From Thermoflexia bacterium (GTDB lineage Bacteria > Chloroflexota > Anaerolineae > B4-G1 > DUEL01): a stretch of DNA of 64,000 bases. The translations under genes and the position numbers were made by a program. The notes under the pieces were generated by a model. It made no database searches. It was not told the origin of the DNA and worked only from the letters and a program-made list of their open reading frames with translations. Shown here one piece after another: positions 19,164 through 55,610 of this stretch (its first letter is position 1; the number at the start of each line of letters is the position of its first letter). Where the stretch lies: assembly GCA_011192125.1 (NCBI GenBank), contig DUEL01000055.1, forward strand, positions 5,770 to 69,769. The letters run 5' to 3'.

Positions 19164-20213
19164 ATGGAGACGATCCCCCTGTTGAGGGAACTTTCGGAAA
19201 CCCCCGGTTTGGCTGGTCACGAAGGGCCGATCCGGGACCTCGTCCGGCGGTTGTGGTCCCCTCTGGTGGACGAACTTCGCGAGGACGGGCTAGGGAGCCT
19301 CATTGGCACGAAGCAGGGGACGGGCCCCGAGCCGCGTCCTCGGCTGATGCTGGCTGTCCATATGGACGAGATCGGCCTGCGGGTGACGGGGATCGAGAAA
19401 GGTTTCCTGCGTGTCACCCGCCTTGGCGGGACCGACCGGCGGGTACTTCCGGGAGCGGCTGTTGTGGTTCACGGCAAGAAGGACCTCCCTGGCGTCGTTG
19501 GGATGCGACCACCCCATGTGGTTCCCAAAGAGCAGCGGAAGAAGCCAGTCCCGTGGGAGGAACTGTTCGTGGATGTGGGGTTGTCGGAAGAGGAGATACG
19601 GAGGTGGGTCCGTGTGGGCGACCCCATTTCCTTTGACCGGGAATTGGTCGAACTGAAGAACGGCCTGGTAGCCGGAAAAGCGCTGGACAACCGGGCATCG
19701 GTAGCGGCGCTGACGCTGGCGCTGGAGGAGTTGAGCCGTACCCAGCACGCCTGGGACGTGGTGGCCGTGGCGACGGTGCAGGAGGAGGTAGGGCTGTACG
19801 GGGCGGCGACCAGCGCGTACGGTGTGAAGCCGGACCTGGCGGTGGCGGTGGATGTGACATTTGGACGGCAGCCCGGGGTGTCTGCGGATGACTCCTTCCC
19901 GCTGGGTGAGGGGCCGACCATCAGCGTGGGACCCAATTTCCACCCGCAAGTGGTGGGACGGCTCAAAGCCGCCGCCGAGGCCCACGAGATTCCTTACCAC
20001 ATCGAGCCCACCCCCGGCCGCAGCGGTACCGACGCCTGGGCGATCCAGGTGGCCCGGGAGGGGGTCCCAACCGGCCTGATCTCCATCCCGCTCCGGTACA
20101 TGCACCAGCCGGTGGAGACGGTGGCGGTGAAGGATGTGGAGCGGGCTGCGCGGTTGCTGGCGGCCTTTGCGGCGGGGCTGGAGGCGAGTTTCCGGCCCCA
20201 GTGGGAGGAGTGA
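19164..20213 (+). CDS. M42 family metallo-aminopeptidase (FrvX/YsdC/CelM-like), copy 1
   Basis: METIPLLRELSETPGLAGHEGPIRDLV N-terminus; HMDEIGL, GKALDNRASVAA, VQEEVGLYGA motifs; start at internal ATG 19164 (upstream ORF part is His/Asp-rich frame artefact overlapping the PT gene). Confidence 0.8.
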   Translation: METIPLLRELSETPGLAGHEGPIRDLVRRLWSPLVDELREDGLGSLIGTKQGTGPEPRPRLMLAVHMDEIGLRVTGIEKGFLRVTRLGGTDRRVLPGAAVVVHGKKDLPGVVGMRPPHVVPKEQRKKPVPWEELFVDVGLSEEEIRRWVRVGDPISFDRELVELKNGLVAGKALDNRASVAALTLALEELSRTQHAWDVVAVATVQEEVGLYGAATSAYGVKPDLAVAVDVTFGRQPGVSADDSFPLGEGPTISVGPNFHPQVVGRLKAAAEAHEIPYHIEPTPGRSGTDAWAIQVAREGVPTGLISIPLRYMHQPVETVAVKDVERAARLLAAFAAGLEASFRPQWEE

Positions 20214-20267
20214 CGTGTTGTGCGGTATGTGATGCGTCATACGTCACACGTCATACGTCATGCGTCA
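20211..20267. repeat. NRCGTCA heptamer tandem array (5 copies; reverse complement of TGACGYN) between M42 copies 1 and 2
   Basis: gATGCGTCATACGTCACACGTCATACGTCATGCGTCAag; one more TGACGTG overlaps the stop codon at 20211. Confidence 0.6.
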
Positions 20268-20290
20268 AGGGTGTCGCCCTGGAGCGGAAT

Positions 20291-21325
20291 ATGATCCTGA
20301 AAGAACTCTCAGAGGCTTTCGGCCCTTCTGGCAATGAGAGGCCGGTCCGGCAGATACTGCGGCAGGCTTTGGAGGGCCACGTTGATCGGATGTGGGTCGA
20401 TGCGCTGGGTAACCTGCATACGGAGAAGCAGGGGACCGGGGAGGACCGACTGCGGGTGCTGGTGACCGCCCATATGGACGAGATCGGCCTGATGGTCGTG
20501 GGCCACGACGACGACGGCACACTGAAGGTCCGAGCCATTGGCGGGATCGATCCCCGAGTCCTGCCCGGCGCGCAGGTCCTGGTGGGACCGGACCGGCTCC
20601 CCGGTGTGATCGGCCTCAAGCCGGTCCATCTGCTGAAAGAAGGGGAGGCGGACAAAGTTGCCACCATCGACCAGTTGCGGGTGGACATCGGGGCCAAGGG
20701 GAAGGAGGAGGCGAAGAATCTGGCCCCGGTGGGGGCGGTGGTGGTGTTCGCCACGCGGTTCCGTGAGTTAGGGCCGACGGTGATGGGTAAATCGTTCGAC
20801 GATCGGGTGGGGTGCGCGGTGCTGGTGGAGCTGCTTCGTGGGGAGCGGTTCCCTCACGATCTGCATGCCGTCTTCACCGTACAGGAGGAGGTAGGGCTGC
20901 GCGGCGCGCGGGTGGCGGCCTACGCCGCCTGTCCGGATTGCGGTTTCGCGCTGGAGGGGACCATCGCCGACGACCTGCCCAAGGAGAAGGACGTCAGCCC
21001 CACTACGGAGTTGGGGAAGGGTCCGGCGATCACGGTGATGGACCGGACCTTCATCGCCCATCGGGGATTGAACCGGCTGCTGGTGGAGACGGCAGAGGAG
21101 TTGGGCATTCCCTGCCAGTTCAAACAGCCCGGCATCGGCGGCACCGATTCGGGGGCGGTCCATCTGGCCCGGGAGGGGGTCCCCTGTGCCACTGTGGCTG
21201 TCCCCTGTCGCTACATCCACAGCCCGGCCAGCCTCCTCAGCCTTGCCGACTTTGAGAACACCGTGCGGTTGATGCGGGAGGCGCTGAACCGATTGAGGCG
21301 GGAACACGTTGGATCATCTTTTTGA
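20291..21325 (+). CDS. M42 family metallo-aminopeptidase, copy 2
   Basis: MILKELSEAFGPSGNERPVRQILRQ; HMDEIGLMVV, FDDRVGCAVL, VQEEVGLRGA. Confidence 0.8.
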   Translation: MILKELSEAFGPSGNERPVRQILRQALEGHVDRMWVDALGNLHTEKQGTGEDRLRVLVTAHMDEIGLMVVGHDDDGTLKVRAIGGIDPRVLPGAQVLVGPDRLPGVIGLKPVHLLKEGEADKVATIDQLRVDIGAKGKEEAKNLAPVGAVVVFATRFRELGPTVMGKSFDDRVGCAVLVELLRGERFPHDLHAVFTVQEEVGLRGARVAAYAACPDCGFALEGTIADDLPKEKDVSPTTELGKGPAITVMDRTFIAHRGLNRLLVETAEELGIPCQFKQPGIGGTDSGAVHLAREGVPCATVAVPCRYIHSPASLLSLADFENTVRLMREALNRLRREHVGSSF

Positions 21326-21384
21326 TCGCGGAGCGCGGAGGTTCTTAGCGAAATCTTCTCCGCGTCCTCTGCGTCTCTGCAGTG
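21326..21384 (+). repeat. Dispersed element, copy B (GCGGAG...TCCTCTGCGTCTCTGCAGTG)
   Basis: gcggagcgcggaggttcttagcgaaatcttctccgcgtcctctgcgtctctgcagtg, 5' of M42 copy 3. Confidence 0.5.
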
Positions 21385-21417
21385 AAATCGGAGCGCGAAC
21401 ACAGAGGGAGAGGAGAC

Positions 21418-22398
21418 GTGAGAGACCTGATTCGCAAACTGACTGAGACCTATGGCCCTTCGGGCTTTGAGGATCGTATCCGTGCGGTGATCCGGGAGGA
21501 GGTCGAGCCGCTGGCCGACGAGGTGCGGGTAACGCCGCTGGGCAGTCTGGTGGCGGTGAAGAAAGGCACCGGCGGGGGCCGGCGGATCATGCTGGCGGCC
21601 CATATGGACGAGATCGGTGTGATGGCCAGCCACGTGGACGACAAAGGGTTCCTCCGCTTCACTGCCATCGGTGGCGTCAACCCTCTTACCTGCGTCGGAG
21701 CGCGGGTGCAGTTCGAGGACGGGACGTTGGGGGTGATCGGCGTTGAGGGGAAGCGGGAGGATCGGACGAAGGCCCCCCGCCTTGATCAGTTGTACATCGA
21801 CGTGGGGGCGACGGGTAAGGATGACTGCCCTGTGCGGGTTGGGGACGCGGCCGTCTTCGTGCGGCCCTTCGCGGTCCGGGGCACGCGGCTCATCGCTAAG
21901 GCAATGGACGACCGGATCGGCTGTGCAGTGCTGATCGAGACCCTGCGGCGGTTGGAGGGGACGTCCAACGAGGTGTATTTCGTGTTCAGTGTACAGGAGG
22001 AGACCACCCTTTCCGGGGCGCGGACGGCAGCTTATGGGATCGAGCCCGATCTGGCGATTGCGGTGGACGTGACCGGGACGGGGGACACGCCGGAGGCACG
22101 GCCGATGGCGGTGGAGTTGGGCAAGGGTCCGGCGGTGAAGGTGCAGGACCGGGGGATGATCGCCCATCCGCTGGTGCGCGACCTGCTGGTGCGGGCGGCG
22201 GAAGCGGCGGGGGTGGCCTGCCAGATGGAGGTCCTGGAGCGCGGCACCACCGACGCGGCGGCGATGCAGTTGGTGCGGGCGGGTGTTCCCTCTGGCTGTC
22301 TTTCCATCCCTTGTCGCTACGTCCACACCCCCAGCGAGATGGTGGATGAGGGGGATGTGGAAGGGGCGGTGAAGGTATTGGTCGAAGCGGTCCGATGA
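21418..22398 (+). CDS. M42 family metallo-aminopeptidase, copy 3 (GTG start at 21418 preferred; ORF opens at GTG 21382)
   Basis: RDLIRKLTETYGPSGFEDRIRAVIREE aligns with N-termini of copies 1 and 2; HMDEIGVMAS, MDDRIGCAVL, VQEETTLSGA; GGGAG 7 nt upstream of 21418. Confidence 0.75.
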   Translation: MRDLIRKLTETYGPSGFEDRIRAVIREEVEPLADEVRVTPLGSLVAVKKGTGGGRRIMLAAHMDEIGVMASHVDDKGFLRFTAIGGVNPLTCVGARVQFEDGTLGVIGVEGKREDRTKAPRLDQLYIDVGATGKDDCPVRVGDAAVFVRPFAVRGTRLIAKAMDDRIGCAVLIETLRRLEGTSNEVYFVFSVQEETTLSGARTAAYGIEPDLAIAVDVTGTGDTPEARPMAVELGKGPAVKVQDRGMIAHPLVRDLLVRAAEAAGVACQMEVLERGTTDAAAMQLVRAGVPSGCLSIPCRYVHTPSEMVDEGDVEGAVKVLVEAVR

Positions 22399-23210
22399 GA
22401 TCGGTGGAGCGGTTGAGCGAACTCTGGCGGTATCGGGAACTGATCTACAACCTGGTCATCCGCGACCTCAAGGCGCGGTACAAGAACTCCATACTGGGCA
22501 TCGCGTGGTCGTGGCTCAACCCGCTGATGATGATGGTGGTCTACACCGTCGTCTTCAACGTCCTTGCGGGCCGCTCCGGGATTCCGGACTACCCGGTCTT
22601 TCTTCTCTCGGCGCTTCTGCCGTGGAACCTGTTTGCCAACTCGGTCGCTGAAGCGACCAACAGCGTCGTCCAATCCGCCCCGCTGATCAAGAAAGTGTAC
22701 TTTCCTCGGGAGGTTCTTCCCATTTCCGTCGTGCTGGGTAACGCAGTGCACTTCGTGATTAGCCTCCCGGTCTTCTTTGGGTTAGCCCTGGCGATGGGAC
22801 GGCCGATCAGTGGGTGGGTACTTTTGTTGCCTGTGACTCTCCTCGTTCAAATCGCGTTCACGCTGGGGGTCGGGCTCATCACGGCCACGTTGAACGTCTT
22901 TTATCGGGACACCTACCTGATAATGAACGTCCTGCTCACGGCGTGGTTTTTCCTGACCCCCATTTTCTATCCCATCACCACCGTCCCGGAGCAATACGTC
23001 CTCTGGGGGATTGTGTTCAACCCTCGGGTCTGGCTGCGCCGGCTGAACCCGATGGCTTCTATCATTGCCTCTTATCAGGACCTCCTCTACTGGGGCGCGC
23101 CCACCGGTTGGGACTTCTTCTTGCGGACAGCTGTGACGTCGGTGGTGGTCCTGATCGTGGGTTACCTGGTCTTCCTACGGTATAGTCCGAGGTTTGGGGA
23201 GGAGGTGTGA
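22395..23210 (+). CDS. wzm: ABC-2 type polysaccharide export permease (Wzm/KpsM/TagG family)
   Basis: ELIYNLVIRDLKARYKNSILGIAWSWLNPLMMM signature and 6 TM helices; 4-bp overlap with M42 copy 3. Confidence 0.8.
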   Translation: MRSVERLSELWRYRELIYNLVIRDLKARYKNSILGIAWSWLNPLMMMVVYTVVFNVLAGRSGIPDYPVFLLSALLPWNLFANSVAEATNSVVQSAPLIKKVYFPREVLPISVVLGNAVHFVISLPVFFGLALAMGRPISGWVLLLPVTLLVQIAFTLGVGLITATLNVFYRDTYLIMNVLLTAWFFLTPIFYPITTVPEQYVLWGIVFNPRVWLRRLNPMASIIASYQDLLYWGAPTGWDFFLRTAVTSVVVLIVGYLVFLRYSPRFGEEV

Positions 23211-23261
23211 AGAGCAAGGCCTCGCTCTAGATCTGCAAGAGTAGCTTTGGGTTGGGACGAG

Positions 23262-23759
23262 TCAGTCTGGTAGATCTATAGCAACCTCCCCCAAATCAGT
23301 GATTGCCCCCGCTTCAACGGTTACTAGAATATCCAGACCTGTTTCCGGATCAGTGACCACCCACGAATTCCCCGGAGTCCAAATCACCAGTGCATATGTA
23401 TCTGGCTCGACGTCTAGAAAGGCAAAATAACCGTTCTTGTCAGTTGTGGTGCTTGGGGATGAGCTTGGCAGCATTGTGATAATGTGGGACCCGGGGGCCC
23501 CCTCCAGGGGAGATAGTTCGCCTAGATAGATGACCATTTCCACCGCAGGCTCTCCGGAGATATAATCAACAAATCGGCCAGTGATTATCCCTTTGTCGAC
23601 TGGTGGATTAGGGAGTGGGGTCGGGCGGGTCCCCGTGGGAGTGGCAAGGGGGCTGACGTATAGGGGCGATTCGAAGGTCAACTCGGGAGTTGGTCTGACG
23701 TTGCAACCGGATAGACCTATGATTAGGATCGGTAAGATTGCGATGGTCAGACGTTTCAT
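23262..23759 (-). CDS. Lipoprotein with carboxypeptidase-regulatory-like beta-sandwich domain
   Basis: Lipobox ILIIGLSGC; DKNGYFAFLDVEPDTYALVIW pattern; start set at ATG 23759 with GGAGG RBS (upstream ORF part is read-through of the hairpin). Confidence 0.5.
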   Translation of the reverse strand: MKRLTIAILPILIIGLSGCNVRPTPELTFESPLYVSPLATPTGTRPTPLPNPPVDKGIITGRFVDYISGEPAVEMVIYLGELSPLEGAPGSHIITMLPSSSPSTTTDKNGYFAFLDVEPDTYALVIWTPGNSWVVTDPETGLDILVTVEAGAITDLGEVAIDLPD

Positions 23760-23778
23760 GCGTGTACCTCCATCTATT

Positions 23779-23820
23779 ACGCACTCGAAGGCCACCAACC
23801 CTGGTGGCCTTCGAGTGCGT
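23779..23820 (-). terminator. Perfect 19-bp inverted repeat with 4-nt loop between convergently ordered minus-strand genes; terminator or processing/regulatory hairpin
   Basis: acgcactcgaaggccacca-accc-tggtggccttcgagtgcgt; 18 nt after the stop of 23839..25167 and ending just before the RBS of 23262..23759; no U-tract follows. Confidence 0.4.
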
Positions 23821-23838
23821 TGTCAGTGAGATTGAACT

Positions 23839-25167
23839 TTACTGCCCGATACCGTTGTAGGCATAGAGCTGATCCATTATCTGATCACGCTCGGGTGCCT
23901 CGTTCATATCCTCGTTGACTACGCAGACGATGGGTTGTGTCGAGGTTATTGTGGCCGAGCCAATGAAACCATCGCTCAGCAGGGAGTCGGCGGGCTGGTA
24001 GAATAGGTGAATTCCGTTTACAGGGATTGATGGAGAGGTCGTTGTCCCGCTAATGCCGCCATAGGATATGGACATTGTGGCAGAGGCGGTGCCGATGTTC
24101 TGACAGGTGATGCTGGTGTTGTACTTGTAGTAACGCCGCATCACGATTGGAGCACGCACAGTGGTGCTGCCACTTGTGAAGCCGGAGTAGCTGGCCGCAC
24201 GGTTCTTGTCGGTTGACTCGTTTACCAGCACCGCAAGAGGTTGTCCGTTGGTGCTCTCGATCTTGGCACCGGTCAGCAAGCCGGTGGCTAGCCCTTCAAG
24301 CGGTGTGTAACGGCTGTCCGCTGCACCGGGGGGGATCGTCGTATACTTCACTGTGCCGTCGGAGTAGGTGATCTTTACATTCGCATCGGCTGTGCCCATG
24401 TTCTGGATCACAAGTGCGGTGTTGTAACCGTAGTAGTTGTTCATGATCACTGGCGCGTAGGCAACGGTGGAGCCGCTGGAGAAGGGGTTGTATGAGTAGA
24501 GCTGGTCATCATAGGGCCCCCTACCGTAAATGTTTACAACGGCTGCAATGTTCCCCGTGCCGATGATTTTGGCCGAGTAGAATTTGTTGTCGGCGAGCTG
24601 GGCTAGTCCTTCTTGTTCAAAAACGACAAAGCCGTTGGCCGGCACGTTGGTTCGAGTGTCCGTATAGACCGGGGTGGAATTACCGGGTTCATAGATCTCC
24701 AACGTGATATCGATCGTACTACCACTGGCGTTCTGTACAATCACGTTGGAGTAGTAATTGTAGTAATTGTCGTAGATACCGGGTGCGTACAAGGTAGTGG
24801 CGACCTCGCTGCCGCTTATACCACTGTAGCTTGCCCCGCTGTCCGGATCGCTGAAGTTTACGACGGCTGCTACTTCTTGGTCACAGCTGACCACACCAGC
24901 GTATTGTCCATCTGCTACTGTGGTGTCGCTCGGTACGTAGATGTAAGCACTTTCACCTGCGGGGATCGGCGAGAGGGCGCCACTGGAGTACACCTCGTTG
25001 CCGTTGGCGTCATAGAAGCTGAAGACGCAGTTTGCATCCTGAGTCCCCAGGTTCTGAATACGGAACGCTGTATTGAAGGGCCCTTCAGGTGCTGGCGCAT
25101 CGGCGTTGACAGCAACTGGAAGTGTCAGCAGGAGTATGATCATCACGAGGGGTATGTACTTTTTCAT
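23839..25167 (-). CDS. Secreted protein with four internal repeats of about 105 aa (beta-rich, Tyr/Asn/Ser/Thr-rich), possible cell-surface or S-layer-associated
   Basis: Signal peptide MKKYIPLVMIILLLTLPVAVNA; repeat cores NYYNYYSNVIVQNASGSTIDITLEIY / NNYYGYNTALVIQNMGTADANVKITY / RRYYKYNTSITCQNIGTASATMSISY; AGGAGG RBS. Confidence 0.55.
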   Translation of the reverse strand: MKKYIPLVMIILLLTLPVAVNADAPAPEGPFNTAFRIQNLGTQDANCVFSFYDANGNEVYSSGALSPIPAGESAYIYVPSDTTVADGQYAGVVSCDQEVAAVVNFSDPDSGASYSGISGSEVATTLYAPGIYDNYYNYYSNVIVQNASGSTIDITLEIYEPGNSTPVYTDTRTNVPANGFVVFEQEGLAQLADNKFYSAKIIGTGNIAAVVNIYGRGPYDDQLYSYNPFSSGSTVAYAPVIMNNYYGYNTALVIQNMGTADANVKITYSDGTVKYTTIPPGAADSRYTPLEGLATGLLTGAKIESTNGQPLAVLVNESTDKNRAASYSGFTSGSTTVRAPIVMRRYYKYNTSITCQNIGTASATMSISYGGISGTTTSPSIPVNGIHLFYQPADSLLSDGFIGSATITSTQPIVCVVNEDMNEAPERDQIMDQLYAYNGIGQ

Positions 25168-25255
25168 CTTTTAAACCTCCTTTGCCTGATAGGTCGCCCG
25201 CTTAGACGATTTGAAGATATCATAACGGAGGAATTAGCCCTCGGTCAATACTCCT

Positions 25256-26263
25256 TTAGGGGTAATGCTGTGTGTCTCGTTGATCACGTCCAAGTATTCG
25301 TGCTGTGATCCACATTAGCCCACCCCACACCAAGTCGCTAGCGATAAAGAGTACGCGTAGCAGCAGGGCCACCAGCAAAGCCCCGGCAATGGGCAGATTT
25401 GGACTCAGCAGGGCCGTTAATGTTAGTTCTCGGATCCCCATTCCTGCTGGTATGATTATTGAGGTTAAGAAACTGATTCCTCCTGTTAACGCCCATATGC
25501 GTACGGCATCACCCAGGGTTATTCCAGACGTCGGTGCCACGCTATGCGCCAGCAGGAACAGGATTAGCCCCCCGATGACATAAGCAACTGCATACAATCC
25601 CATCCATAGTGCTAGCTCCCTCCATTGTGGTGGATCAAGACTAGAGAGGTTCACAAGCACCTGTCGTAAGGGTCTGGGTAGCCGGGTTTCATCCTGCGTC
25701 GACCAGCGGAGTCTCAGACGTTGAAAGCCGGCCGCGATGAGCACGACAGCAAGGAAAGAGAAAGCGAGGCTTGCTAGCCATGAACTGTGGAGAGGAAGGC
25801 TCAGAGCACTATATATCACCATAGCTATCACTAGTAGCAGCAGCCATTCCAACCCGCTAGCGGCTAGGGTCACATGTGTTTCAATACCCTGCTCGTAGTA
25901 TCGCATCGCTCTTCCGGCCAAGTACCAAGGTGCACCAGGTAGGCGGCGCATAAGGTGGGTGTAGGCATAGATCTCGATGTCACGCCATCTACTCTCCTTT
26001 GGTCCCAGTCTTGCTATCATCATACTCCAGGTCAGGGCCTGGAGGCTTAACGATAGAGGATAGATGAAGAAGCCTCGTGCACAGGCAGCTAGATATGCTT
26101 GCCAATTATCGAATTGCTGCAACTCCTTGTATCCGTAAATGAGTAGGGCGAGGAGGAACCCGACAGAGAGAAAAAGCACTCCCGCGCTTATCCATCGTTG
26201 GAGGCGGGGGTTTTCCCGAAGTATGGACCACTTCTCCAGCAGATTGTGCAATTTTTCCCTCAT
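25256..26263 (-). CDS. Flippase-like polytopic membrane protein (UPF0104 / lysyl-PG-synthase TM-region family)
   Basis: 8 TM segments; family commonly paired with GT2 enzymes; ATGA overlap with methyltransferase upstream. Confidence 0.5.
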   Translation of the reverse strand: MREKLHNLLEKWSILRENPRLQRWISAGVLFLSVGFLLALLIYGYKELQQFDNWQAYLAACARGFFIYPLSLSLQALTWSMMIARLGPKESRWRDIEIYAYTHLMRRLPGAPWYLAGRAMRYYEQGIETHVTLAASGLEWLLLLVIAMVIYSALSLPLHSSWLASLAFSFLAVVLIAAGFQRLRLRWSTQDETRLPRPLRQVLVNLSSLDPPQWRELALWMGLYAVAYVIGGLILFLLAHSVAPTSGITLGDAVRIWALTGGISFLTSIIIPAGMGIRELTLTALLSPNLPIAGALLVALLLRVLFIASDLVWGGLMWITARILGRDQRDTQHYP

Positions 26264-27231
26264 AGTGTTCTGTCGCTATGCCGTTTCCGGGCAAACAGGG
26301 TGATGAGAGAGGAGAGGCGGGCACGGCTGATCATCCAGAACAGGGGTGCGAACGCTAGTCGGAGCGGCATAGTATGTCCTAACCGCAGTATGTGTCGGGG
26401 CCAGCGTGCTGGTGGGGGATACCGGTCCTCCAGGTAGAACCGTAGGCTCATCAAGAAGGCTGAGTAGCTCGTGGCAATGCACTGGAGTCCTTCCACTGTG
26501 AAGCCTAGTTCGGAGAGCGCAGCCGCCAGTGCCCGCCGGGGAAAGAGATAGAGGTGGCGGGGTAGATCCCAACCTAGCCAGAGAGGACCAAACCAGCGAG
26601 CTTCCGGGCTCTCCAGGTTGGGAATCCGGATGACTAGCAACCCCCCGTCTACTAAAAGGCGATGTATCTCTCTGAGGTCAGCCCACGGGGTATGTAGATG
26701 CTCGAGCACGTCCCATAGCGTGATGACGTCAAAAGACGCACTGGGCAAGCCAACCTGACCTAGCCGTCCGACGCGGACATCTAGTCCAAAGCGCTGTTGG
26801 GCATAGCCAGCGGCGGCAGGATCAGGTTCTATGCCGACCACCTCCCATCCAGCTAATTGCATTTCGTGAAGGAAGATGCCAGTGGCACAGCCGACGTCCA
26901 AGAGCCGTCCTTTGGGCTGCAAACGCTCAATTGACCGGCGTCGTTTGAGAATACCGTAGCGGCGGTCCCATCGACGCCACCATACGGGTTCGTCTTCTAT
27001 AGCCTGGATAAAGTTAATATAATCGGGGGGGTAGTAGAAACCGATGGTTTCGACGGTAGGGCGAGGGTTCTGGCGAATCCAACCACATTGCAGACACTCA
27101 ACTACCCGAAAGATGCCCGGCAGGCGATGTAACCGATCGGGTCCTTCGAATAGTTCTCGTTCCTCAGTCGATCCGCAGTGGTCGCATGGGACGAGCTCAG
27201 ACTCTACACCAGGCGGAAACCATGGGCTCAT
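26260..27231 (-). CDS. Class I SAM-dependent methyltransferase with N-terminal Cys4 zinc ribbon
   Basis: CDHCGS...CLQCG zinc ribbon; LLDVGCATGIFLHEM motif I; Methyltransf_11/23-like. Confidence 0.7.
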   Translation of the reverse strand: MSPWFPPGVESELVPCDHCGSTEERELFEGPDRLHRLPGIFRVVECLQCGWIRQNPRPTVETIGFYYPPDYINFIQAIEDEPVWWRRWDRRYGILKRRRSIERLQPKGRLLDVGCATGIFLHEMQLAGWEVVGIEPDPAAAGYAQQRFGLDVRVGRLGQVGLPSASFDVITLWDVLEHLHTPWADLREIHRLLVDGGLLVIRIPNLESPEARWFGPLWLGWDLPRHLYLFPRRALAAALSELGFTVEGLQCIATSYSAFLMSLRFYLEDRYPPPARWPRHILRLGHTMPLRLAFAPLFWMISRARLSSLITLFARKRHSDRTL

Positions 27232-29444: not shown

Positions 29445-29630
29445 CTCGATTCGCTCGTCTTGCTTTCCCGAGTGACTTTAGGACGAAAACGGTATCAAAT
29501 CCGTTCCCATTTTAAGGTGCCTGCTCTGTCGATGTAATTGAAGAAGCCATCTCCATACCCGACATCAAGTATTGGGCTAGTCTGGGTGTGGGTGAGAACA
29601 AGCCGGCGATAATAGGCAGCAAAGTGAGGA

Positions 29631-30830
29631 TTATGCTCTCTCATACCCATAGATACGAGTGAAATCGTGCACTAGTCTATCCCAATAGAACCGCTCTCGG
29701 ATCGCCAGTGCTTCGGCGGAGAGGCGATCTCTGAGTGGTTCATCCCTCAAGAGAGCTATCATAGCCTCGGAGAGCGCAACTGGGTCCCCAGGCGGAATTA
29801 GCAAACCGCCTCCGTGTGCTAATATCGTGGCTCGGTCTCCCACGTCTCCAGTGATTACCGGGGTGCCTGCTGCCAGGCTCTCCACCACCTTGAGGGGATA
29901 GCGACCATGTTCTGCTAATGTTCCTCGCACGGGATCAACCGAGACTTCGGCCAAGCGGTAATAGAGAGGCACTTCATCGGGGGGAACTCGGCCTAAGAAG
30001 AGCACTCTCCTTAGCCCTAATGCTTGGGCTTGGCGTTGTAGCTTTTCGTAGTCTTCTCCGCCCCCCACCAATATTAATATCGCTCGGCCCTCAGCGCGCT
30101 GGACGAGTGCAAACGCTTCCAGTAGCAAGTCTACAGCATGATTGGCCAAACTGAGGCTTCCTACATAGACTATGACCTTCCGATCCTCCAATCCCAGGCG
30201 GCGGCGGGCTCTCTCGATGTCCACGTCCTTTATAGCGGAAAACCGCGTACGATCTACGCCGTTGGGAACATAGACGATGCGGTCCCTTTGGCATCCTAGC
30301 TGCACCAAGCGTTCAGCCATAAAACGGGTATTAACGGTGACACCAGCCGTAATCCGAGGGAGGGAATTCTCAAAAAAGGCCACTATTCTGCGTTGCCAAC
30401 TCCCGCTGAAGCGGTTGGAGGCAGCTTCGTAATCGTCGCAGTCGAGATAAACTGGCTTTCCTAGCAAGAGGGGTGGCAAGAGAGCCAGTCCGTTCATCGG
30501 ATGAGGTTTGCAGATGTGATATACATCGGTTGGTGTTAACAAAGCGGCCTTCGTCAGCCGTAAGGTGGCTAAGGTAGAGACCAGTATTAGCTGGATTGGC
30601 CCAAAGTAGAGTTTTTGATTGCCTACTTTCCGTACGTGCATCTGCCCGACGTAGTGAACCCTGACACCTCCCTCCACATATTCTTGCTGTTGCAGCGTTT
30701 GAAAGTTGTGGTGCAGTGCCAAGAGGGTCACCTCGTGCCCGAGCCGCACTAACTCCTTGGACAGGGGCCAGTAGCGTCCCAATCCGGACGGACTTTCGAG
30801 GCTCTGCGTGAGCAAGAAAGTGATTCTCAA
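29631..30830 (-). CDS. Glycosyltransferase family 4
   Basis: MRITFLLTQSLESPSGLGRY GT4 N-domain; C-terminal GGGE...E GT4 motif region. Confidence 0.75.
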   Translation of the reverse strand: MRITFLLTQSLESPSGLGRYWPLSKELVRLGHEVTLLALHHNFQTLQQQEYVEGGVRVHYVGQMHVRKVGNQKLYFGPIQLILVSTLATLRLTKAALLTPTDVYHICKPHPMNGLALLPPLLLGKPVYLDCDDYEAASNRFSGSWQRRIVAFFENSLPRITAGVTVNTRFMAERLVQLGCQRDRIVYVPNGVDRTRFSAIKDVDIERARRRLGLEDRKVIVYVGSLSLANHAVDLLLEAFALVQRAEGRAILILVGGGEDYEKLQRQAQALGLRRVLFLGRVPPDEVPLYYRLAEVSVDPVRGTLAEHGRYPLKVVESLAAGTPVITGDVGDRATILAHGGGLLIPPGDPVALSEAMIALLRDEPLRDRLSAEALAIRERFYWDRLVHDFTRIYGYERA

Positions 30831-31927: not shown

Positions 31928-32021
31928 CTCTTATACCCCGGGTTCCGAGACAGGATCCATCGCTTCGCTTACGGCCCAAGGAGGTAGACTTGGAATGGCC
32001 CAATGGCCTCTCGCTTAAGCA

Positions 32022-32045: not shown

Positions 32046-32145
32046 CCGTCAGCGCAGCAGGACCCTGCCCTGGCAGGTAGATGAGCCAGACGCGAGATCA
32101 TCTTTTTACAAGTTCGTCCATCAACTTCCCCTGCCATCCCGCTGG

Positions 32146-41678: not shown

Positions 41679-41683
41679 TTTAA

Positions 41684-42493
41684 GTGGAAGCACTACCACC
41701 CTCCTTCCGGCCTAGCCTACTGACTGTTGTAAAGGATTACATCAACCGAGCAGTTCGGGGAGAGCTCCACCTGCCTCCCTGGTGGTTGCGCGACGTAGGC
41801 GGCAGCGACTTCAGGGCTACGGGGGAGGAGTTTCTTCGCCTGTTCGTCCAGATCGGCGGCCTGCAGCCCGACGAGCGGGTCCTAGAGATCGGCTGCGGCA
41901 GTGGGCGTATGGCTATTCCCCTGACCAGCTATCTGAGTCGCGCAGGGCTTTACGTTGGGATGGACATTACGCGCCCGACCGTCCTGTGGTGCCAGCGACA
42001 CATCTCCCGCCGCTATCCCAATTTCCACTTCCTGCACGTCGATCTCTACAACAAACGCTACAATCCTACCGGGCGGTACCTGGCTAGAGAGTATCCCTTC
42101 CCTTTTAGAGATCAAAGCTTCAGCTTCATTTTTCTCACATCGGTCTTCACCCACCTGCTACCGGAAGATACTGCCCACTACCTGCGCGAGATCGCGCGTA
42201 TGCTGCGTCGGGATGGGCGGGCATTCTTCACTTTTTTCCTGCTTAATGATGAACAACGACGGCTGGCGAAGCGAGGATGCAATGATATCCGTTTTGAGTA
42301 CGGGCCGGGATTCTACCGGGTGCGCGACCCTGCCGTACCGGAAAGTGCCGTTGCCTACGACGAGGTTTATCTTCTCGACCTGCTCTCGGAGTGCGGGTTA
42401 GTTCTGCGCCAACCGGTCTACTATGGCTCGTGGAGTGGTCGGGACGATGGCGTTTCATATCAGGACATCATAATCGTTCAGCACCGGGAATGA
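41684..42493 (+). CDS. Class I SAM-dependent methyltransferase
   Basis: VLEIGCGSGRMAIPL motif I, DITRP motif II. Confidence 0.65.
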   Translation: MEALPPSFRPSLLTVVKDYINRAVRGELHLPPWWLRDVGGSDFRATGEEFLRLFVQIGGLQPDERVLEIGCGSGRMAIPLTSYLSRAGLYVGMDITRPTVLWCQRHISRRYPNFHFLHVDLYNKRYNPTGRYLAREYPFPFRDQSFSFIFLTSVFTHLLPEDTAHYLREIARMLRRDGRAFFTFFLLNDEQRRLAKRGCNDIRFEYGPGFYRVRDPAVPESAVAYDEVYLLDLLSECGLVLRQPVYYGSWSGRDDGVSYQDIIIVQHRE

Positions 42494-42504
42494 CGTTGTA
42501 GGGC

Positions 42505-44844: not shown

Positions 44845-45100
44845 ATTCCTCACTCTATTTCCTATTTCTACTGCGGAGCTAATTATACCACTAGGCTACT
44901 CGCCATCAACATGATATGGGGAGGTGCTCAAGGTATTCGAATCAGAAGCGTAGGACAGCATCTCTCCACGACATATCGGTTTATCGGCTCACTGCTATCA
45001 CGGGGGAACAATTATGTGCCGGAGGCGCATCGCACCTGCGACAGGGGCTATAATGGGAGGGACAGGACGGCTTATTGCTTGACACAAGCACTAGGCGGCT

Positions 45101-45128
45101 TTGCCAGGGCCATGGGGCGTGGTATAAT
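45101..45128 (+). promoter_or_regulatory. Sigma70-like promoter with extended -10 (TTGCCA-16-TGgTATAAT) for 984-aa GT gene
   Basis: ttgcca gggccatggggcgtgg tataat, about 60 nt upstream of ATG 45190; located in a lower-GC 336-bp divergent intergenic region. Confidence 0.35.
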
Positions 45129-45189
45129 CTGGACCATTCAATCGGGGTGAAGATCGGTAGCGCATCTTAGCGTCGAGGGTGGAGAGGCG

Positions 45190-48144: not shown

Positions 48145-48171
48145 GGAGGCGCCTGTGACGGGTCCTCCCAA

Positions 48172-49224
48172 TCAGAGAGCCTGCCGCCTAACGTCGAACC
48201 GTTTCGCTACCCTGTTTAACCAGTTCAGCAGGCGCATCACGCGGCCCCGACTGATTTGATCGAGTAACTCCCTATACCGCTGAAGCATGAGACGCAGCTC
48301 GTGCGTTTCATACTCCCGCACCCAACGATAGTAGGTGCTCATATCCATAGGAGTTATATCTCCAGAGGCGGCCTCTGGTGGTTGGGGGCCACCAGGATAC
48401 TGGAAATTAAGGGGATATCCCCAAACCGCCATCTCCGGGCCGCAAATCCTGGCAAGCACTTGTTTCTGTTCGCGTGTCCAATCCACAGGATAGAAGAAGT
48501 CTCCGACATCTTTTTCGGGAAAAGCCGTGTTCTCCCGCCGTGATTTGAACACATCGGCGACGGCCTGACTCCACTCGGGCACCCCCAGGAAATCAGTCAC
48601 TCGACGCGCGACTTGGCCAGGTTCGGTCACAATGTGCTCCTGCGCGACCTCAATGTAACGTCCGGTTAAAAGGGGTCGGACCTGGCGCCACATTTTCATC
48701 ACTGCGACCCAATGCTTGCAGGTAGAGAGGAACACTGCATCCACATTGGCTTTGCTATCGTGGTTTCTCTGCATGTAGGCGATCGTTGAGTTGACGGTGG
48801 TGATCGCGTTACGTTTCATGAAAATGAACTGGGCCTGTGGGAATATCTCTGCCAGCATTGGGGCAACCAATACCGCATCCACACCGGGGGACTTGCTTAC
48901 CCAGCGCACGCACTCGGGTGGCAACTGATCACGGTGGAATTGATCAATCAGCAGCGCTATCTGACGCTCCAGCAGCAGGTTACGCCCCGCTCCCAGTGCA
49001 AAGATCTCCTCACGGAGGTGCGCCTTATACTCGGGATCGCGCCACCACGCGAGCGGCTTAATCAGATCATACCACAGATGATCCTCTGGAAACCCGAAGA
49101 ACCCGGCTACACGCAGGGCTCGCCACATAATCGAGGTGCCTGTGCGCTGTCGACCGAGGATAAAAATCGGGTCGAGTTGCCGCCACTGTGCTTCTATTTC
49201 ATCCATCCCTGGTATTTGCCCCAT
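48172..49224 (-). CDS. Sulfotransferase family protein with C-terminal amphipathic helix/coiled coil
   Basis: 5'-PSB-like P-loop ILGRQRTGTSIMWRAL; 3'-PB-like region; C-terminal ...DQISRGRVMRLLNWLNRVAKRF. Confidence 0.5.
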   Translation of the reverse strand: MGQIPGMDEIEAQWRQLDPIFILGRQRTGTSIMWRALRVAGFFGFPEDHLWYDLIKPLAWWRDPEYKAHLREEIFALGAGRNLLLERQIALLIDQFHRDQLPPECVRWVSKSPGVDAVLVAPMLAEIFPQAQFIFMKRNAITTVNSTIAYMQRNHDSKANVDAVFLSTCKHWVAVMKMWRQVRPLLTGRYIEVAQEHIVTEPGQVARRVTDFLGVPEWSQAVADVFKSRRENTAFPEKDVGDFFYPVDWTREQKQVLARICGPEMAVWGYPLNFQYPGGPQPPEAASGDITPMDMSTYYRWVREYETHELRLMLQRYRELLDQISRGRVMRLLNWLNRVAKRFDVRRQAL

Positions 49225-49234
49225 CTCTCACTCG

Positions 49235-50611
49235 CTAGCCCTGGATATTCCGTCCTGCGGCTCGTCGCCATAGGCGTTGGAGGCTCGTTAACAACCGCAT
49301 CACGCGGCCTTGCATTATAGCCTCGATAGTCTGCTCGAGGTCGGCTATCCGCTGCTCCGCCCTCATCAATCCAGCCTCGTAACTCCGCATAGCCTGCCGC
49401 AGTCCCTTGATCTGTTCCTCTTGCTCTCGGATCTGTTGTTGTATCTCACTCGCGTATCGCTCGACGCCTGCAATGAAGATATGCCACAGCTCGTTCTTGT
49501 TAGCCGGAGGGCCGCCGTACTGCTGGCGGATGTCGCTCAACGTGGCCCACAGCTCCTCAGCCCGCCGTTCGGGCGTGTAGCGGGCGTACACGGTGCGGCG
49601 GGCAGCCTCGCCCATCTCCCGGCGTCGTTGAGGGTGGTCCAGCAACATCTGTAGAGCTTCACGCCACTCGTCGGGCGAGTTGACAAGCAGGCCGTTGCGC
49701 CCGTGGGCAATAGCATACTCATAGGCTTCCGCACGGCTAGCCACAGTGGGTACTCCCACCAACGCTGCCTCGACGAACTTGATCTCGCTCTTGGCCTGGC
49801 AGAAGGGATTATCTGTCTCCAATGGCACTAGGTTGATGTCGGCCTGAGCGATAACATGCGGTAACTCGCGCCAGGTCATATAGGGCGTACGGCGGATGCG
49901 GGACCGAAGCGGTTCGAACGCCGGGCTCAACTCTAGGTAGCCGCCGATGTGCAGCCAGACCCAGGGGTAGGTGGACATCACCCATACGAGCGGTTCAGTG
50001 ATGGTTTGAAAATCACGGTTGTGGGAAGCGGTACCGCTGAAATAGCCAATGACAACGGGCCGTGCCGCGTTGCTCTCCTCAAGACGGCGCTGCCGTTCAG
50101 CCCACGCTTGCTCAGAGATGCGGAACATCTCGGCGTTAGGGGCGTTGCGGTTGACATAGGCTGGCTTGCCCCGTCGCCGCGCCTCCTCTGCCAGGAACTC
50201 TGTCGTAGTGAGCACACAGTCGCAATGTTGAAAGGTCTCTTCCAGCCGTGCCAGGTCCGCTCGAAAGCGGCGCGCTACCTCCGGAGGGAGTGTGTCTACC
50301 AAGCCAATATGCGCATATAGCTCGGGGTCGAAAACGAGGTCGTCCGTGTCAAAGATGACAGGCTTACCCTGAGCGTGAGCGAGCTCGATGATCAGACCGA
50401 CCAGCGGGCTGAACGGCACGCGGTGTAGTATGAAGACATCGTAGTCGAAAACATCTGTTAGTAACTGCGGGTCGTCGTCCTCGCGCAGTGATGTGGGTAC
50501 GCCTTTGAGAGCTAGCTGTTCTTGTTGATGGATGCACCGATAGCGGCGCGTATCACCGCCTATTCCACTGATGAAAAGTACCTTGAAGGCCTCCGCCTTC
50601 GTTGTTGTCAT
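49235..50611 (-). CDS. GT-B glycosyltransferase with about 70-aa C-terminal coiled coil
   Basis: GT4-like core (KSEIKFVEAALVGVPTVASR); C-terminal heptad-rich EIQQQIREQEEQIKGLRQAMRSYEAGLMRAEQRIADLEQTIEAIMQGRVMRLLTSLQRLWRR; ATG 50611 with GGAGGGG RBS. Confidence 0.55.
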   Translation of the reverse strand: MTTTKAEAFKVLFISGIGGDTRRYRCIHQQEQLALKGVPTSLREDDDPQLLTDVFDYDVFILHRVPFSPLVGLIIELAHAQGKPVIFDTDDLVFDPELYAHIGLVDTLPPEVARRFRADLARLEETFQHCDCVLTTTEFLAEEARRRGKPAYVNRNAPNAEMFRISEQAWAERQRRLEESNAARPVVIGYFSGTASHNRDFQTITEPLVWVMSTYPWVWLHIGGYLELSPAFEPLRSRIRRTPYMTWRELPHVIAQADINLVPLETDNPFCQAKSEIKFVEAALVGVPTVASRAEAYEYAIAHGRNGLLVNSPDEWREALQMLLDHPQRRREMGEAARRTVYARYTPERRAEELWATLSDIRQQYGGPPANKNELWHIFIAGVERYASEIQQQIREQEEQIKGLRQAMRSYEAGLMRAEQRIADLEQTIEAIMQGRVMRLLTSLQRLWRRAAGRNIQG

Positions 50612-50653
50612 AATGTTCAACCCCTCCACTGCACCGCTGTTGTCGCACGCCCG

Positions 50654-51886
50654 TCAAGTGGTCCTTTTGCTTTTTCCTTCCCCTTCCCACACCCATTCTC
50701 CCCGCAATGTCAGAATGCCAAACCGTTCCCCATCCGAAGGTAGCACCCGAAGGGGGTACAACCGGTTATGATAGTCGTATATTTCTGTATCCTCCCAATC
50801 GTGAGCGGAGACGGAGAGGTAGTAGAGACCCTTTAGGAGGGGCAAAGCCGGGACGATGTATCGCACCGTTCCTTCCCCTTCTACCCAGGGGATCTCTAGG
50901 CCTGCGAACCGGGTGTTCGGCCCGGTAACGTGGACTCCGTCGCTGCGGTGGATGGCCAGGCCAAAGATCGGCCGCTCTACTCGCTCCTGGGCTTGATACC
51001 GCATCTCCACCACCAGGGGCTCTCCTACTCGGAACTGTTGCCTCTCCTGGCCCTCGCCATCTAACAAGCGGACAGCGATGATCTTTATCTTGCCACTTCC
51101 CCAACGGCGGCTATCTCCCCTAGCGGCGTGAAGCCGCCCCTTCTCTGCTGCCCAGGTGCGGTCCAGATACCGCAGTACCACTCCCTCGGCGGGGCCATCG
51201 TCCACCAGTTGGCCCTGGTCCAGCCATATGGCTCGAGAACAGATGGACCGGACGGCCTCTGGGGCGTGGGACACGAAGAGGATGGTCACCCCTTGCCGCC
51301 GCAGGTCATCTATCCGCTCCAGGCACTTGCGCTGGAAGGCTGCGTCTCCCACTGCCAGTACCTCGTCCACTAGCAGAATATCTGGCTCAGTGTGGACGGC
51401 GACGGAGAAGCCCAGCCGCACGTACATCCCGGAGGAGTAGTGCCTCACCGGCACATCGATGAACCGCTCCAGTTCGGCGAAACCGATGATGTCATCCAGT
51501 TTGCGGCGGATCTCCGCTCGGCTCAGGCCCAGGATAGAACCATTGAGGTAGATATTCTCCCTGCCGGTCAGGTCCGGGTGAAAGCCTGCACCCAATTCCA
51601 GAAGAGCCCCAACCCGTCCATCTACGACGATCCGGCCGGAGGTAGGCTCGATGATGCGGGAGATCAGTTTAAGGACAGTGCTCTTGCCTGCTCCGTTGGG
51701 GCCGATCAGCCCCACCGTCTCCCCCTGCTCGACGGTGAAACTCACATCCCGCAACGCCCAGAACTCCTCCCGGGAGTGCTCGTTACGGCGAAGGAGATGG
51801 AGGGCCAGCTCCTGGAAGGAACGGGCCCTCTCGTGGTGAAGTGTGAATCTTTTGGAGACACTCTCAAAACGGATTGCCACACTCAA
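50654..51886 (-). CDS. wzt: ABC transporter ATP-binding protein for polysaccharide export with C-terminal carbohydrate-binding domain (Wzt/TagH-like); TTG start
   Basis: Walker [10 protein letters not shown], signature LSGGM-type region, Walker B ILLVDE; about 150-aa C-terminal extension typical of Wzt O-antigen-binding domain; GAGGA RBS before TTG 51886. Confidence 0.8.
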
Positions 51887-52226
51887 AGTATGTCCTCAGC
51901 CACTCGCGAACATTTTTTGGGACTTACGTCCCAAATAAACGCTACCAAGAGGGTCGGGTTGCATGATAACACACCTCTGGTGAAACGCCAAATACTGTCC
52001 GAGTGTTTGGCATTGTGCAGGGAGAGAGGGAACCACACCTGCTGGGTTGACACAGGTGTACTCCGCTTAAGCGGTTTGACGGAGGGCGGCGGATTTGTTA
52101 AGATGTCTCCGGTGACCAGCCAGGGCACCCCTTACGGCGCGCTCGGGTGCGCCATAGGGAACCTGCGGAGGGCTCCCTTGCAAAAGTGTCAGGTGGCTGG
52201 GAAACTGACCAAGAGGAGGTTCCATC

Positions 52227-53099
52227 GTGTGCGTGGGGAGAGTCGATGTGAGATTCCGGGTTTTTCTACTACTAGTGCTGTTCACAACCGCCTGCCAGGG
52301 AACCTCGCGTGAGCCGTTGGTCTTCAGCGGAGAAGCCGCCTATGCCCACGTGGAGGCCCAATGCGACCTCGGCCCCCGGCCCACCGGTTCCTCTGCCAAC
52401 CGAGCTGTCGGCGACTACATTATCTCCGTTCTGGAGGACGAAGGGTGGGCGGTGGAGACGCAGGAGTTCGCCTACCGCGATACGCCTGTACGGAACATCG
52501 TCGGCAAAGCGGGGGAGGGGCCGGTGGTGATCCTGGGGGCCCACTACGACACCCGTCGCCAGGCCGACCAGGAGGATCCCACCCAGCCGGTCCTGGGAGC
52601 CAACGACGGGGCCTCCGGCGTCGCGGTGCTTCTGGAACTGGCCCGGGTGCTCGATCTGGACCGAGTGGATCGTCAGGTCTGGCTGGCCTTCTTCGACGCC
52701 GAGGACAACGGCCGGCTCGACGGATGGGAGTGGTGTGTTGGCTCTTCCTATATGGCCAACCACCTGGAGGTCGTGCCGGAGGCGGTGGTCGTCGTGGACA
52801 TGGTCGGTGATGCGGACCAGCAGTTCTACTTCGAGGGTAATTCCGACCCCACCCTCCAGCAGGAGTTGTGGGAGATCGCGGCGACGCTGGGGTACACGGA
52901 GACGTTCCGCAGCGAGTACCGCTGGACGATCTACGACGACCACGTCCCCTTCGCCCAACGGTCCATCCCAGCGGTGGACATCATCGATTTCGATTATCCC
53001 TATTGGCACACCACGCAGGACACGCCCGACAAGGTGAGCCCCGCGAGCCTGGAGCGGGTGGGACGGGTGCTGGAGGTGTGGCTGGAGGGGGCTCCGTGA
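52227..53099 (+). CDS. M28 family peptidase (aminopeptidase/glutaminyl-cyclase-like), lipoprotein; GTG start
   Basis: VLFTTACQG lipobox; ILGAHYDTRRQ...GANDGASGVAVLLELARVL...FFDAEDNG motifs; GAGGAGG RBS. Confidence 0.7.
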   Translation: MCVGRVDVRFRVFLLLVLFTTACQGTSREPLVFSGEAAYAHVEAQCDLGPRPTGSSANRAVGDYIISVLEDEGWAVETQEFAYRDTPVRNIVGKAGEGPVVILGAHYDTRRQADQEDPTQPVLGANDGASGVAVLLELARVLDLDRVDRQVWLAFFDAEDNGRLDGWEWCVGSSYMANHLEVVPEAVVVVDMVGDADQQFYFEGNSDPTLQQELWEIAATLGYTETFRSEYRWTIYDDHVPFAQRSIPAVDIIDFDYPYWHTTQDTPDKVSPASLERVGRVLEVWLEGAP

Positions 53100-53130
53100 C
53101 GTGTGGCGTATGACGCTTGACGTATGACGT
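53097..53130. repeat. TGACG pentamer/heptamer tandem array (4 copies) in convergent intergenic region
   Basis: TGACGtgtggcgtaTGACGctTGACGtaTGACGtg. Confidence 0.6.
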
Positions 53131-53145
53131 GTTGCGCCTCACCCG

Positions 53146-54819
<1,674 letters not shown>

Positions 54820-54829
54820 CCTTTCCCCC

Positions 54830-55543
54830 TCACGTTTCCGCTTCCTGGTCTGGCGTTCTTTCCCCAAGAAACCGCTTCAGCGCGTCCCAGGCCGCGGCCT
54901 GCTCGGCGGCTTGTTTAGATCGACCTTCGCCACGGCCAGCTACTTTGCGGCCCAGCAGCACCTCGGCCACGAAGGTCTTGGCGTGGTCGGGCCCCATCTC
55001 GGCCACGATCCGGTAGCGGGGGGTCACCCCGCGCTCCGCCTGCGCCCACTCCTGGAACCGGCTCTTGGCGTCTCGGTCGGCCTCGTTGGCCAGGATGGCC
55101 TCGGCGGCGGGGGGGACAAGGCGTCCCAGGAGCCGCTGGACCGGTTCGATCCCCCCGTCGAGGTAGAGGGCACCGACCAGGGCTTCGAAGCCGTCTCCCA
55201 GGTTGGCGATGCGCTCTCGACCGCCCCCTGTCTCCTCCCCGTGTCCCAGGCGGAGAGCCTCCCCCAATCCCAGCTGGGTGGCGAAGTCGGCCAGGGTCTC
55301 CTCTCGCACCAGCGCGGCCCGCAACCGGGTCATCTCCCCCTCGTGGAAGTCGGGGAAGCGCTGGTAGACCCAGGCCGCCACGGCGAAGTTGAGCACCGCG
55401 TCCCCTAAGAACTCCAGCCGCTGGTTGTCCGGCCCCTCTTCGGGGTGCTCGTTGACATAAGAAGGATGGGTAAGGGCGCGGATCAGAAGGTCCTCGTCCC
55501 GAAAACGATAGCCAATGCGGTCTTGAAAAGCGTCAAGGTTCAT
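54830..55543 (-). CDS. rnc: Ribonuclease III
   Basis: HPSY...[11 protein letters not shown] RNase III signature and C-terminal dsRBD. Confidence 0.85.
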
Positions 55544-55557
55544 CTCAGATCGCGGAT

Positions 55558-55610
55558 TGACGTTTGAGTCTGACGTTTGACGTCTGACGTTTGGCGTTTG
55601 ACGTAACGTT
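55558..55610. repeat. TGACGTT heptamer tandem array (6 copies) between mazG-like stop and rnc start
   Basis: TGACGTTtgagtcTGACGTTTGACGTCTGACGTTTGGCGTTTGACGTAACGTT. Confidence 0.6.

Follow-up and report, generated by a model that had tools for sequence, protein, structure and literature searches.

Intergenic TGACGT-type heptanucleotide repeats in a Thermoflexia bacterium resemble cyanobacterial short tandemly repeated repetitive sequences and are gained, expand and decay at gene junctions

The short tandemly repeated repetitive (STRR) elements of cyanobacteria, built of heptanucleotide units such as CCCCAGT, TTGGTCA and CAACAGT, have been recognized since 1990 and, to our knowledge, have no accepted function. 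Here we analyze three arrays of another heptanucleotide, TGACGTN, in 64,000 nucleotides of DNA (the window) from a Thermoflexia bacterium of the phylum Chloroflexota (contig DUEL01000055.1, positions 5,770 to 69,769), and we find that they are STRR-like intergenic repeats whose evolution at gene junctions proceeds through gain, expansion and decay. Between hupS and hupL, the 7-bp STRR units form hairpins of unknown function, for which a part in transcript stability or in translational coupling has been proposed (PMC2670836), and STRR sequences have also been reported as insertions in the gene for the RNA of RNase P, a structured gene (Vioque 1997, cited in PMC4046671). Repeats of the heptamer TAACTGA occur in marine Beggiatoaceae, some Cyanobacteria and some Bacteroidetes (MacGregor 2015, PMC4679880). 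Among long simple sequence repeats (LSSR), whose units measure 5–11 nt, heptanucleotides are the most abundant class (Mrazek 2007, as summarised in PMC4679880), and heptanucleotide elements of four to five copies are present in Geobacter metallireducens (PMC2700814). A search of the literature returned nothing relevant on TGACGTT tandem repeats or on heptamer repeats in Chloroflexota.

The likeness to STRR sequences lies in the tandem 7-bp units, in the many dispersed copies that sit mostly between genes or within operons, and, more tentatively, in the potential to form hairpins; the window alone contains three such intergenic sites in 64 kb. The phylum and the units are different, as the unit here is T-N-ACGT-N with a self-complementary core, and since the source is a Thermoflexia/Anaerolineae metagenome-assembled genome (MAG) and the unit is TGACGTN, the arrays are not STRR sequences in the strict sense. 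They also begin in the stop codon of a neighboring gene, a feature that we did not find described for STRR sequences. The RNase P RNA insertion, as the citing paper relates it, has a parallel in copies that serve as in-frame protein linkers in other Chloroflexota. The window arrays qualify as heptanucleotide LSSRs as well, being head-to-tail units within the 5–11 nt range in runs longer than chance. According to the published summary of that class, LSSRs share with our arrays a sporadic, lineage-specific and mainly non-coding distribution for which slippage is the proposed origin; LSSR, however, is a purely descriptive label to which no function is attached. TAACTGA repeats resemble the arrays in that a heptamer is repeated two to six times at many intergenic sites, with stop codons in the unit, occasional copies in open reading frames (ORFs), a patchy distribution over phyla and an unknown mechanism. 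Most TAACTGA sets, however, share a single orientation and lie directly upstream of start codons, over the ribosome-binding site, which suggested translational control (PMC4679880), whereas the TGACGT-type arrays are unbiased in orientation and, in the window, adjoin stop codons. Taking these comparisons together with the evidence below, we think it somewhat probable that the three arrays belong to a Chloroflexota-wide T-N-ACGT-N family of heptanucleotide simple sequence repeats, that this family is the counterpart of STRR sequences, and that its members act as weak spacer or stem-loop elements in transcripts.

Arrays 1, 2 and 3 are the sole period-7 arrays that Tandem Repeats Finder (TRF) reports in the window, with scores of 52, 40 and 68, copy numbers of 4.7–7 and unit matches of 74–88%. 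The double unit TGACGTNTGACGT, searched with at most one mismatch, has 11 matches, all of which fall within the arrays, against an expectation of 0.20, and none of 100 shuffles reaches 11 matches to TGACGTNTGACGT. The hexamer TGACGT by itself shows no enrichment (31 observed versus 26 expected), so that the non-random feature is the tandem arrangement. These are the three arrays that a preliminary description of the window had pointed out, with the refinement that its array 1 resolves into a block of five units and a solitary forward unit (Table 1). On the minus strand the main block of array 1 reads TGACG(C/T)N, and on the plus strand, which is the sense strand, it reads NRCGTCA and is free of stop codons in all frames. 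Array 3 reads AACGTCA on its own sense strand (minus), and 14 nt separate its end from the rnc ATG (55541-55543); one of its units, TGAGTC, has lost a base and is shortened to 6 nt. The preliminary description was right that the ACGTCA of arrays 1 and 3 is read in the sense of the downstream gene, and this holds for both flanking genes at each site.

All three arrays are intergenic although a crude ORF caller assigns about 95% of the window to coding sequence (p about 1e-4), and they fill almost the whole of their junction spacers, which measure 77 nt, 46 nt and 65 nt for arrays 1, 2 and 3, respectively. The four stop codons that touch an array all lie inside a T[GA]ACG unit, versus 3 of the 50 other stop codons in the window (Fisher p = 1e-4), and the overlap with stop codons, previously noted for two arrays, had therefore been understated. 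Pfam agrees with the flanking genes as first assigned, namely two M42 peptidases at array 1, an M28 peptidase convergent with methylmalonyl-CoA mutase at array 2, and MazG-like and RNase III genes at array 3, and reveals no common functional theme among them. Single units also stand at other gene ends: the rnc stop codon lies in one AACGTGA (54830-54840), and the gene at 41684-42493 ends in TGACGTT (42491-42497). These single units may be seeds or remnants of arrays. Two coding explanations were rejected. A supply of stop codons in all frames is true of the TGACGT strand alone, and the strand that the ribosome meets in arrays 1 and 3 is the stop-free one; the frame that is open from the GTG at 20201 through array 1 into the second M42 gene, which could be taken for frameshifting, is a trivial result of that same stop-free strand.

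Repeats of this type recur across Chloroflexota. A scan for (TGACGTN)3 in one genome per species (185,579 species) found at least 118 stretches, and among the matches listed 41 are from Chloroflexota (Anaerolineae, Thermoflexia, Caldilineae, Chloroflexia and Dehalococcoidia), several MAGs having three to five stretches each; the other matches listed come from Gemmatimonadota, Porticoccaceae, Ignavibacteria, Pyrinomonadaceae, Bacteroidota, Streptomyces and others. For a view that is blind to the repeat, we used 50 metagenome loci chosen by rnc homology, which together with the window amount to 412 kb. Period 7 dominates this set, with 36 TRF rows at a score of at least 40 versus at most 3 for periods 6 or 8. 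The unit has an ACGT core in 26 of the 49 arrays, mostly as TTCACGT or TTGACGT, where about 3% would be expected for random heptamers, and the remaining units are unrelated (CAGGTCG, ACGGAAC, ACTGGAT, ATAGGGA and GTAGGTA, for example). Intergenic positions account for 41 of the 46 classifiable arrays in sequence that is about 92% called coding (p about 1e-40); an equal density inside coding regions, which the preliminary description had named as the outcome that would speak against its proposal, is thus not what we see.

The arrays show no preference for a strand. Between co-directional genes in all fetched loci, which hold about 100 intergenic arrays, the two orientations number 34 and 26 (p = 0.37), and the Chloroflexota loci alone are likewise balanced. 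Convergent junctions with arrays outnumber divergent ones by 25 to 13 among the fetched loci, a difference that is not significant (p = 0.07). A special link to rnc, considered because arrays adjoin this gene in many relatives, was rejected, as arrays occur at either rnc junction in about 7 of about 20 lineages and so do not clearly exceed the overall density of about one array per 8 kb. Some relatives are far richer in repeats: the 12.7 kb of L165 contain about ten arrays, built from seven or more different heptamers, L131 has (CAGGTCG)12.6 at 5441-5528, and L291 has a 14-mer, (TGCATCCTGCCTCC)8.6, at 2421-2540 together with an 8-mer array.

Comparison at orthologous sites shows how the arrays change. 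Contigs from four to five other samples are 99.98–100% identical to the window and represent one strain, and arrays 1–3 are unchanged in them, array 1 being base-identical in five assemblies and array 3 identical in L119-L122. The comparison of copy number between strains that had been proposed for these arrays therefore yields the same copy number in four to five assemblies of a single strain from different samples; these are consensus assemblies of one strain only, in which rare variants could still exist. The nearest species-level genome that we found is an "Anaerolineales" MAG (L098, L077). The junction that holds array 1 has 26, 63 and 30 nt without heptamers in L288, L290 and L291, whose M42 is 82–89% identical, and in a fourth relative the two M42 genes overlap; the absence of array 1 from the relatives' M42–M42 junctions indicates a recent gain. 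The array 2 junction has five forward and two inverted units here and seven plus three in the sister species (L123/L098, about 91% nucleotide identity), and in L124 (about 86–87% nucleotide identity in the region) the M28/mutase junction carries an inverted pair of another heptamer, ACGGAAC. At the site of array 3, the sister species has neither mazG nor the array, and L124 has a degenerate NNCGCAA series. The rnc–mutase junction, with its single unit in the window, has 4–11 such units in L124-L131 and L164. The birth, growth, decay and loss across these sites is a microsatellite pattern, and the gain, loss, resizing and replacement by other heptamers between species is what would be expected under strand-slippage evolution. 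The first half of the earlier label "simple-sequence contingency locus" thus holds for arrays that come, go and change size between species, and the second half finds no support, given that the arrays are identical in four to five assemblies of one strain.

In the sister genomes (L098 and L123), compared with window 52338-55196, the M28 gene directly adjoins a homologue of window 14022-17325, so that about 35 kb of the window (roughly 17.3–52.3 kb) is rearranged or inserted relative to the sister. Window 23–52 kb has a lower third-position GC content and contains glycosyltransferase, Wzt-type ABC transporter and sulfotransferase genes, and looks like a polysaccharide island.

The case for a structural role comes from inverted pairs. 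In the repeat-blind set, 14 of 49 arrays have an inverted partner (at least two units within 80 nt), versus 0 of 49 in two composition controls, and the inverted pairs in relatives fold strongly, with z from -2.7 to -8.3. The array 2 of the sister species has a predicted folding energy of -48 to -54 kcal/mol (z -4.5 and -5.1), the ACGGAAC pair of L124 has z -2.7 and -3.4, and the window has the weakest M28/mutase hairpin of the three (z -0.1 and -1.05). The window copies are weak, partly decayed forms of the strong hairpins of relatives. Judging from the gene layout, arrays 1 and 3 would be transcribed within operon mRNA and array 2 within the 3' ends of convergent genes, and a short opposite-sense arm together with the main block could fold into an imperfect stem-loop that starts at the stop codon. 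With stem-loops predicted in the transcripts, any effect would be of the REP or STRR kind. At the M28/mutase junction, we hypothesize a bidirectional 3' hairpin without a U-tract that would end or protect both transcripts, and in the M42 and mazG–rnc operons the array may be a spacer or a weak structure between cistrons. Repetitive extragenic palindromes and bacterial interspersed mosaic elements (REP/BIME), which are dispersed and linked to a RAYT transposase, as well as the U-tract-less ("I-shaped") terminator hairpins of GC-rich bacteria, are imperfect palindromes of transcribed intergenic regions, at operon and convergent junctions, that plausibly end or protect transcripts. Our arrays resemble these in being partly palindromic and in the strong M28/mutase hairpins of relatives (z from -2.7 to -5.1). 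They differ in that the arms are tandem heptamers that can pair in several registers, that most arrays have no inverted partner, and that the window hairpins are weak.

Several results weigh against a transcript-level role for a single Chloroflexota repeat family. Transcription and 3' ends at the arrays are taken from gene layout alone. A scan for intrinsic terminators (a hairpin with a U-tract) found none at any of the three arrays, where hairpins without a U-tract are possible. Folded as RNA on each of the two strands, the window arrays give z from -0.1 to -2.6, barely better than shuffled sequences, so that we do not claim structured RNA for the window copies. Rfam yields no match across the window at gathering score and none at E <= 1 in the array regions, and a tRNA/tmRNA search found none. 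In the repeat-blind set 35 of 49 arrays are without an inverted partner, and hairpin formation therefore cannot be what the arrays do in general. Genes in the comparison loci were called by a crude ORF heuristic, and several of these loci are orthologous and hence not independent. Slippage alone leaves the ACGT core in about half of the clade's arrays unaccounted for; the preference could reflect a lineage-specific mutational bias or a lineage-specific reader. In viral contigs (IMG/VR), (TGACGTN)3 occurs in 9 stretches versus 44 and 56 for two controls of the same composition. This last result also led us to reject, as a universal cause, the idea that a self-complementary ACGT core is slip-prone everywhere. 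Each of the two controls, (TGAGCTN)3 and (TGACTGN)3, has matches in 44–56 viral contigs (L182-L281), some with long or multiple arrays, so that heptamer arrays of other units are common in viral or proviral DNA too.

In copies inside coding sequences, the sense strand is almost always the stop-free one (11 of 13). In other genomes these in-frame arrays encode (TSNVKRQ)n-like linkers at domain boundaries: in HypF, between the zinc fingers and the YrdC domain, and in a GltD-like protein, between the Fe-S and FAD domains. In-frame arrays are also found at apparent fusions of a CoxM-like with a CoxS-like protein and of asparagine synthase with an F420-ligase-like domain, and linkers at such sites suggest that intergenic arrays may occasionally fuse neighboring genes.

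The weakness of the window copies makes near-neutral status the main rival to a spacer or stem-loop role. The arrays would then be functionless by-products of replication slippage that persist where they do no harm, in spacers and protein linkers, which we regard as possible, if doubtful. The gain and loss at orthologous junctions of close relatives, the unbiased orientation relative to genes, the weak folding of the window copies and the lack of a functional theme among the adjoining genes all agree with it, as does the fact that copies in coding sequence are tolerated only when stop-free and at domain boundaries. What it does not readily accommodate is the strong lineage-specific bias to ACGT (26 of 49 arrays against about 3%), which is not seen in viral contigs, together with the non-random inverted pairing (14 of 49 versus 0 in controls) and the retention of a heptamer hairpin at the M28/mutase junction in three species despite a change of unit.

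A bolder reading treats the T-N-ACGT-N arrays, instead of as passive microsatellites, as a Chloroflexota-wide system of cis elements, in which a lineage-specific protein or enzymatic process selects or makes the unit, inverted arrays are register-slipping hairpins that set transcript ends, and stop-free arrays are linkers that fuse genes. We consider this unlikely.

That the arrays are iterated sites for a sequence-specific protein, whether a DNA regulator, a nucleoid protein or a ring-shaped RNA-binding protein with a 7-nt register, is distinctly unlikely. One unit family is present three times in 64 kb and recurs across many Chloroflexota, its ACGT-core preference is lineage-specific, as expected with a lineage-specific reader, and antiterminators of the HutP type read triplets at a 7-nt period. 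A sigma-70-like promoter scan, however, found no promoter at any of the three arrays. The convergent layout of the genes around array 2 leaves no promoter between them, and arrays 1 and 3 lie in 65–77 nt spacers of apparent operons. Both orientations are equally common, many unrelated heptamers occupy equivalent junctions in relatives, and the arrays are not conserved at orthologous sites, array 1 being absent in three relatives and array 2 replaced in L124. The TGACGT-type repeat is moreover translated as a linker in other genomes, and a spacing of 7 bp does not keep the helical phase of DNA. The proposal in the preliminary description of binding sites for a bZIP/CRP-like or response-regulator protein finds no support for these same reasons, that is, the missing promoters, the balanced orientation, the variety of units, the poor conservation and the 7-bp register.

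A dedicated mechanism that makes or spreads the repeats, such as templated insertion or a mobile element in place of local slippage, appears highly unlikely. It would explain how arrays appear de novo in tight junctions and in conserved genes (hypF and the gltD-like gene) and why one unit family is common to dispersed sites of a genome, and the array at the rnc–mutase junction of L124 (1183-1243) is indeed flanked on both sides by the 9-mer GGGGGTGAG. This 9-mer, GGGGGTGAG, includes the ribosome-binding motif and resembles a target-site duplication, a pattern that is not general. Duplications are inconsistent elsewhere, with 16 blocks having a flank repeat of at least 7 nt versus about 6 expected and the repeats not abutting the arrays; array ends and flanks have no conserved sequence, and no associated gene was identified. 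As the excess of flank repeats is slight and follows no regular pattern, we rejected a mobile-element origin as a general explanation.

Contingency loci, in which frequent changes of copy number switch the expression of neighboring genes, are scarcely credible here, for while short tandem repeats are the classic substrate of phase variation and heptamer repeats upstream of the Haemophilus hmw genes act in this way (PMC12721329, PMC8262952), our arrays have equal copy numbers in four to five assemblies from different samples, consist of heterogeneous units (74–88% matches) in which slippage is suppressed, neighbor housekeeping genes (peptidases, rnc, mutase) and not surface genes, and follow stop codons, outside promoters and 5' coding regions.

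The surroundings of array 1 contain other repeats. The M42-family genes form three tandem paralogues (19164-22398) with a heptamer array in the first junction only, and the second junction (21326-21417) contains an unrelated 8-periodic TCTCTGCG stretch. A C/A-rich repeat at 18848-19107, with periods of 6, 18, 24, 30 and 36 (ACGCCG/CCCACC type), encodes a Thr/Pro-rich stretch that lies just upstream of the first M42 gene or forms its N-terminal extension; gene callers differ as to which strand it is on and as to its status as a gene of its own. A Thr/Pro-rich feature near the first M42 gene is also present in L288, L290 and L291.

Table 1 Heptamer arrays, associated stop codons and flanking genes in the window, and TGACGT-type arrays inside coding sequences of other loci (coordinates of the respective locus).
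Feature	Coordinates	Strand	Description
Array 1, forward unit	20211..20217	+	TGACGTG; solitary; supplies the TGA stop of the first M42 peptidase gene
Array 1, two degenerate forward units	20218..20232	+	TTGTGCG GTATGTG A; loop and inner stem of predicted hairpin
Array 1, main block, five units	20233..20267	-	TGCGTCA TACGTCA CACGTCA TACGTCA TGCGTCA as read on +
Array 2, forward block, five units	53097..53131	+	TGACGTG TGGCGTA TGACGCT TGACGTA TGACGTG; first TGA is the M28 stop codon
Array 2, inverted arm, two units	53135..53148	-	TGACGGG TGAGGCG on minus strand; first TGA is the mutase stop codon
Array 3, seven units	55558..55605	+	TGACGTT TGAGTC TGACGTT TGACGTC TGACGTT TGGCGTT TGACGTA
Array 3, opposite-sense unit	55606..55611	-	TAACGT(T); supplies the TAA stop of the MazG-like gene
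Array-touching stop codon, first M42 gene	20211	+	TGA
Array-touching stop codon, M28 gene	53097	+	TGA
Array-touching stop codon, mutase gene	53146-53148	-	TGA
Array-touching stop codon, MazG-like gene	55609-55611	-	TAA
Two tandem M42 peptidase genes	19164..21325	+	Flank array 1; first gene ends at 20213, second has ATG at 20291 after a GGAG motif
M28 peptidase gene	52227..53099	+	Left of array 2
Methylmalonyl-CoA mutase gene	53146..54819	-	Right of array 2, convergent with M28
RNase III gene (rnc)	54830..55543	-	Downstream of array 3
MazG-like gene	55609..55926	-	Upstream of array 3
In-coding TGACGT-type array, L033	1185-1219		Stop-free orientation
In-coding TGACGT-type array, L037	1227-1256		Stop-free orientation
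In-coding TGACGT-type array, L094	2920-2947		Stop-free orientation
In-coding TGACGT-type array, L017	5314-5333		Stop-free orientation

For the window alone the practical message is modest, in that its arrays should not be annotated as regulator sites or as phase-variable loci. For the biology of these repeats, the arrays add a second, unrelated phylum in which an STRR-type element is the dominant class of tandem repeat, with a different and strongly preferred unit and with stop codons built into it. In Chloroflexota, such arrays combine predicted hairpins at convergent junctions with in-frame linkers or apparent gene fusions, and they offer an independent system in which slippage bias, structure at transcript ends and the existence of a reader protein can be tested.

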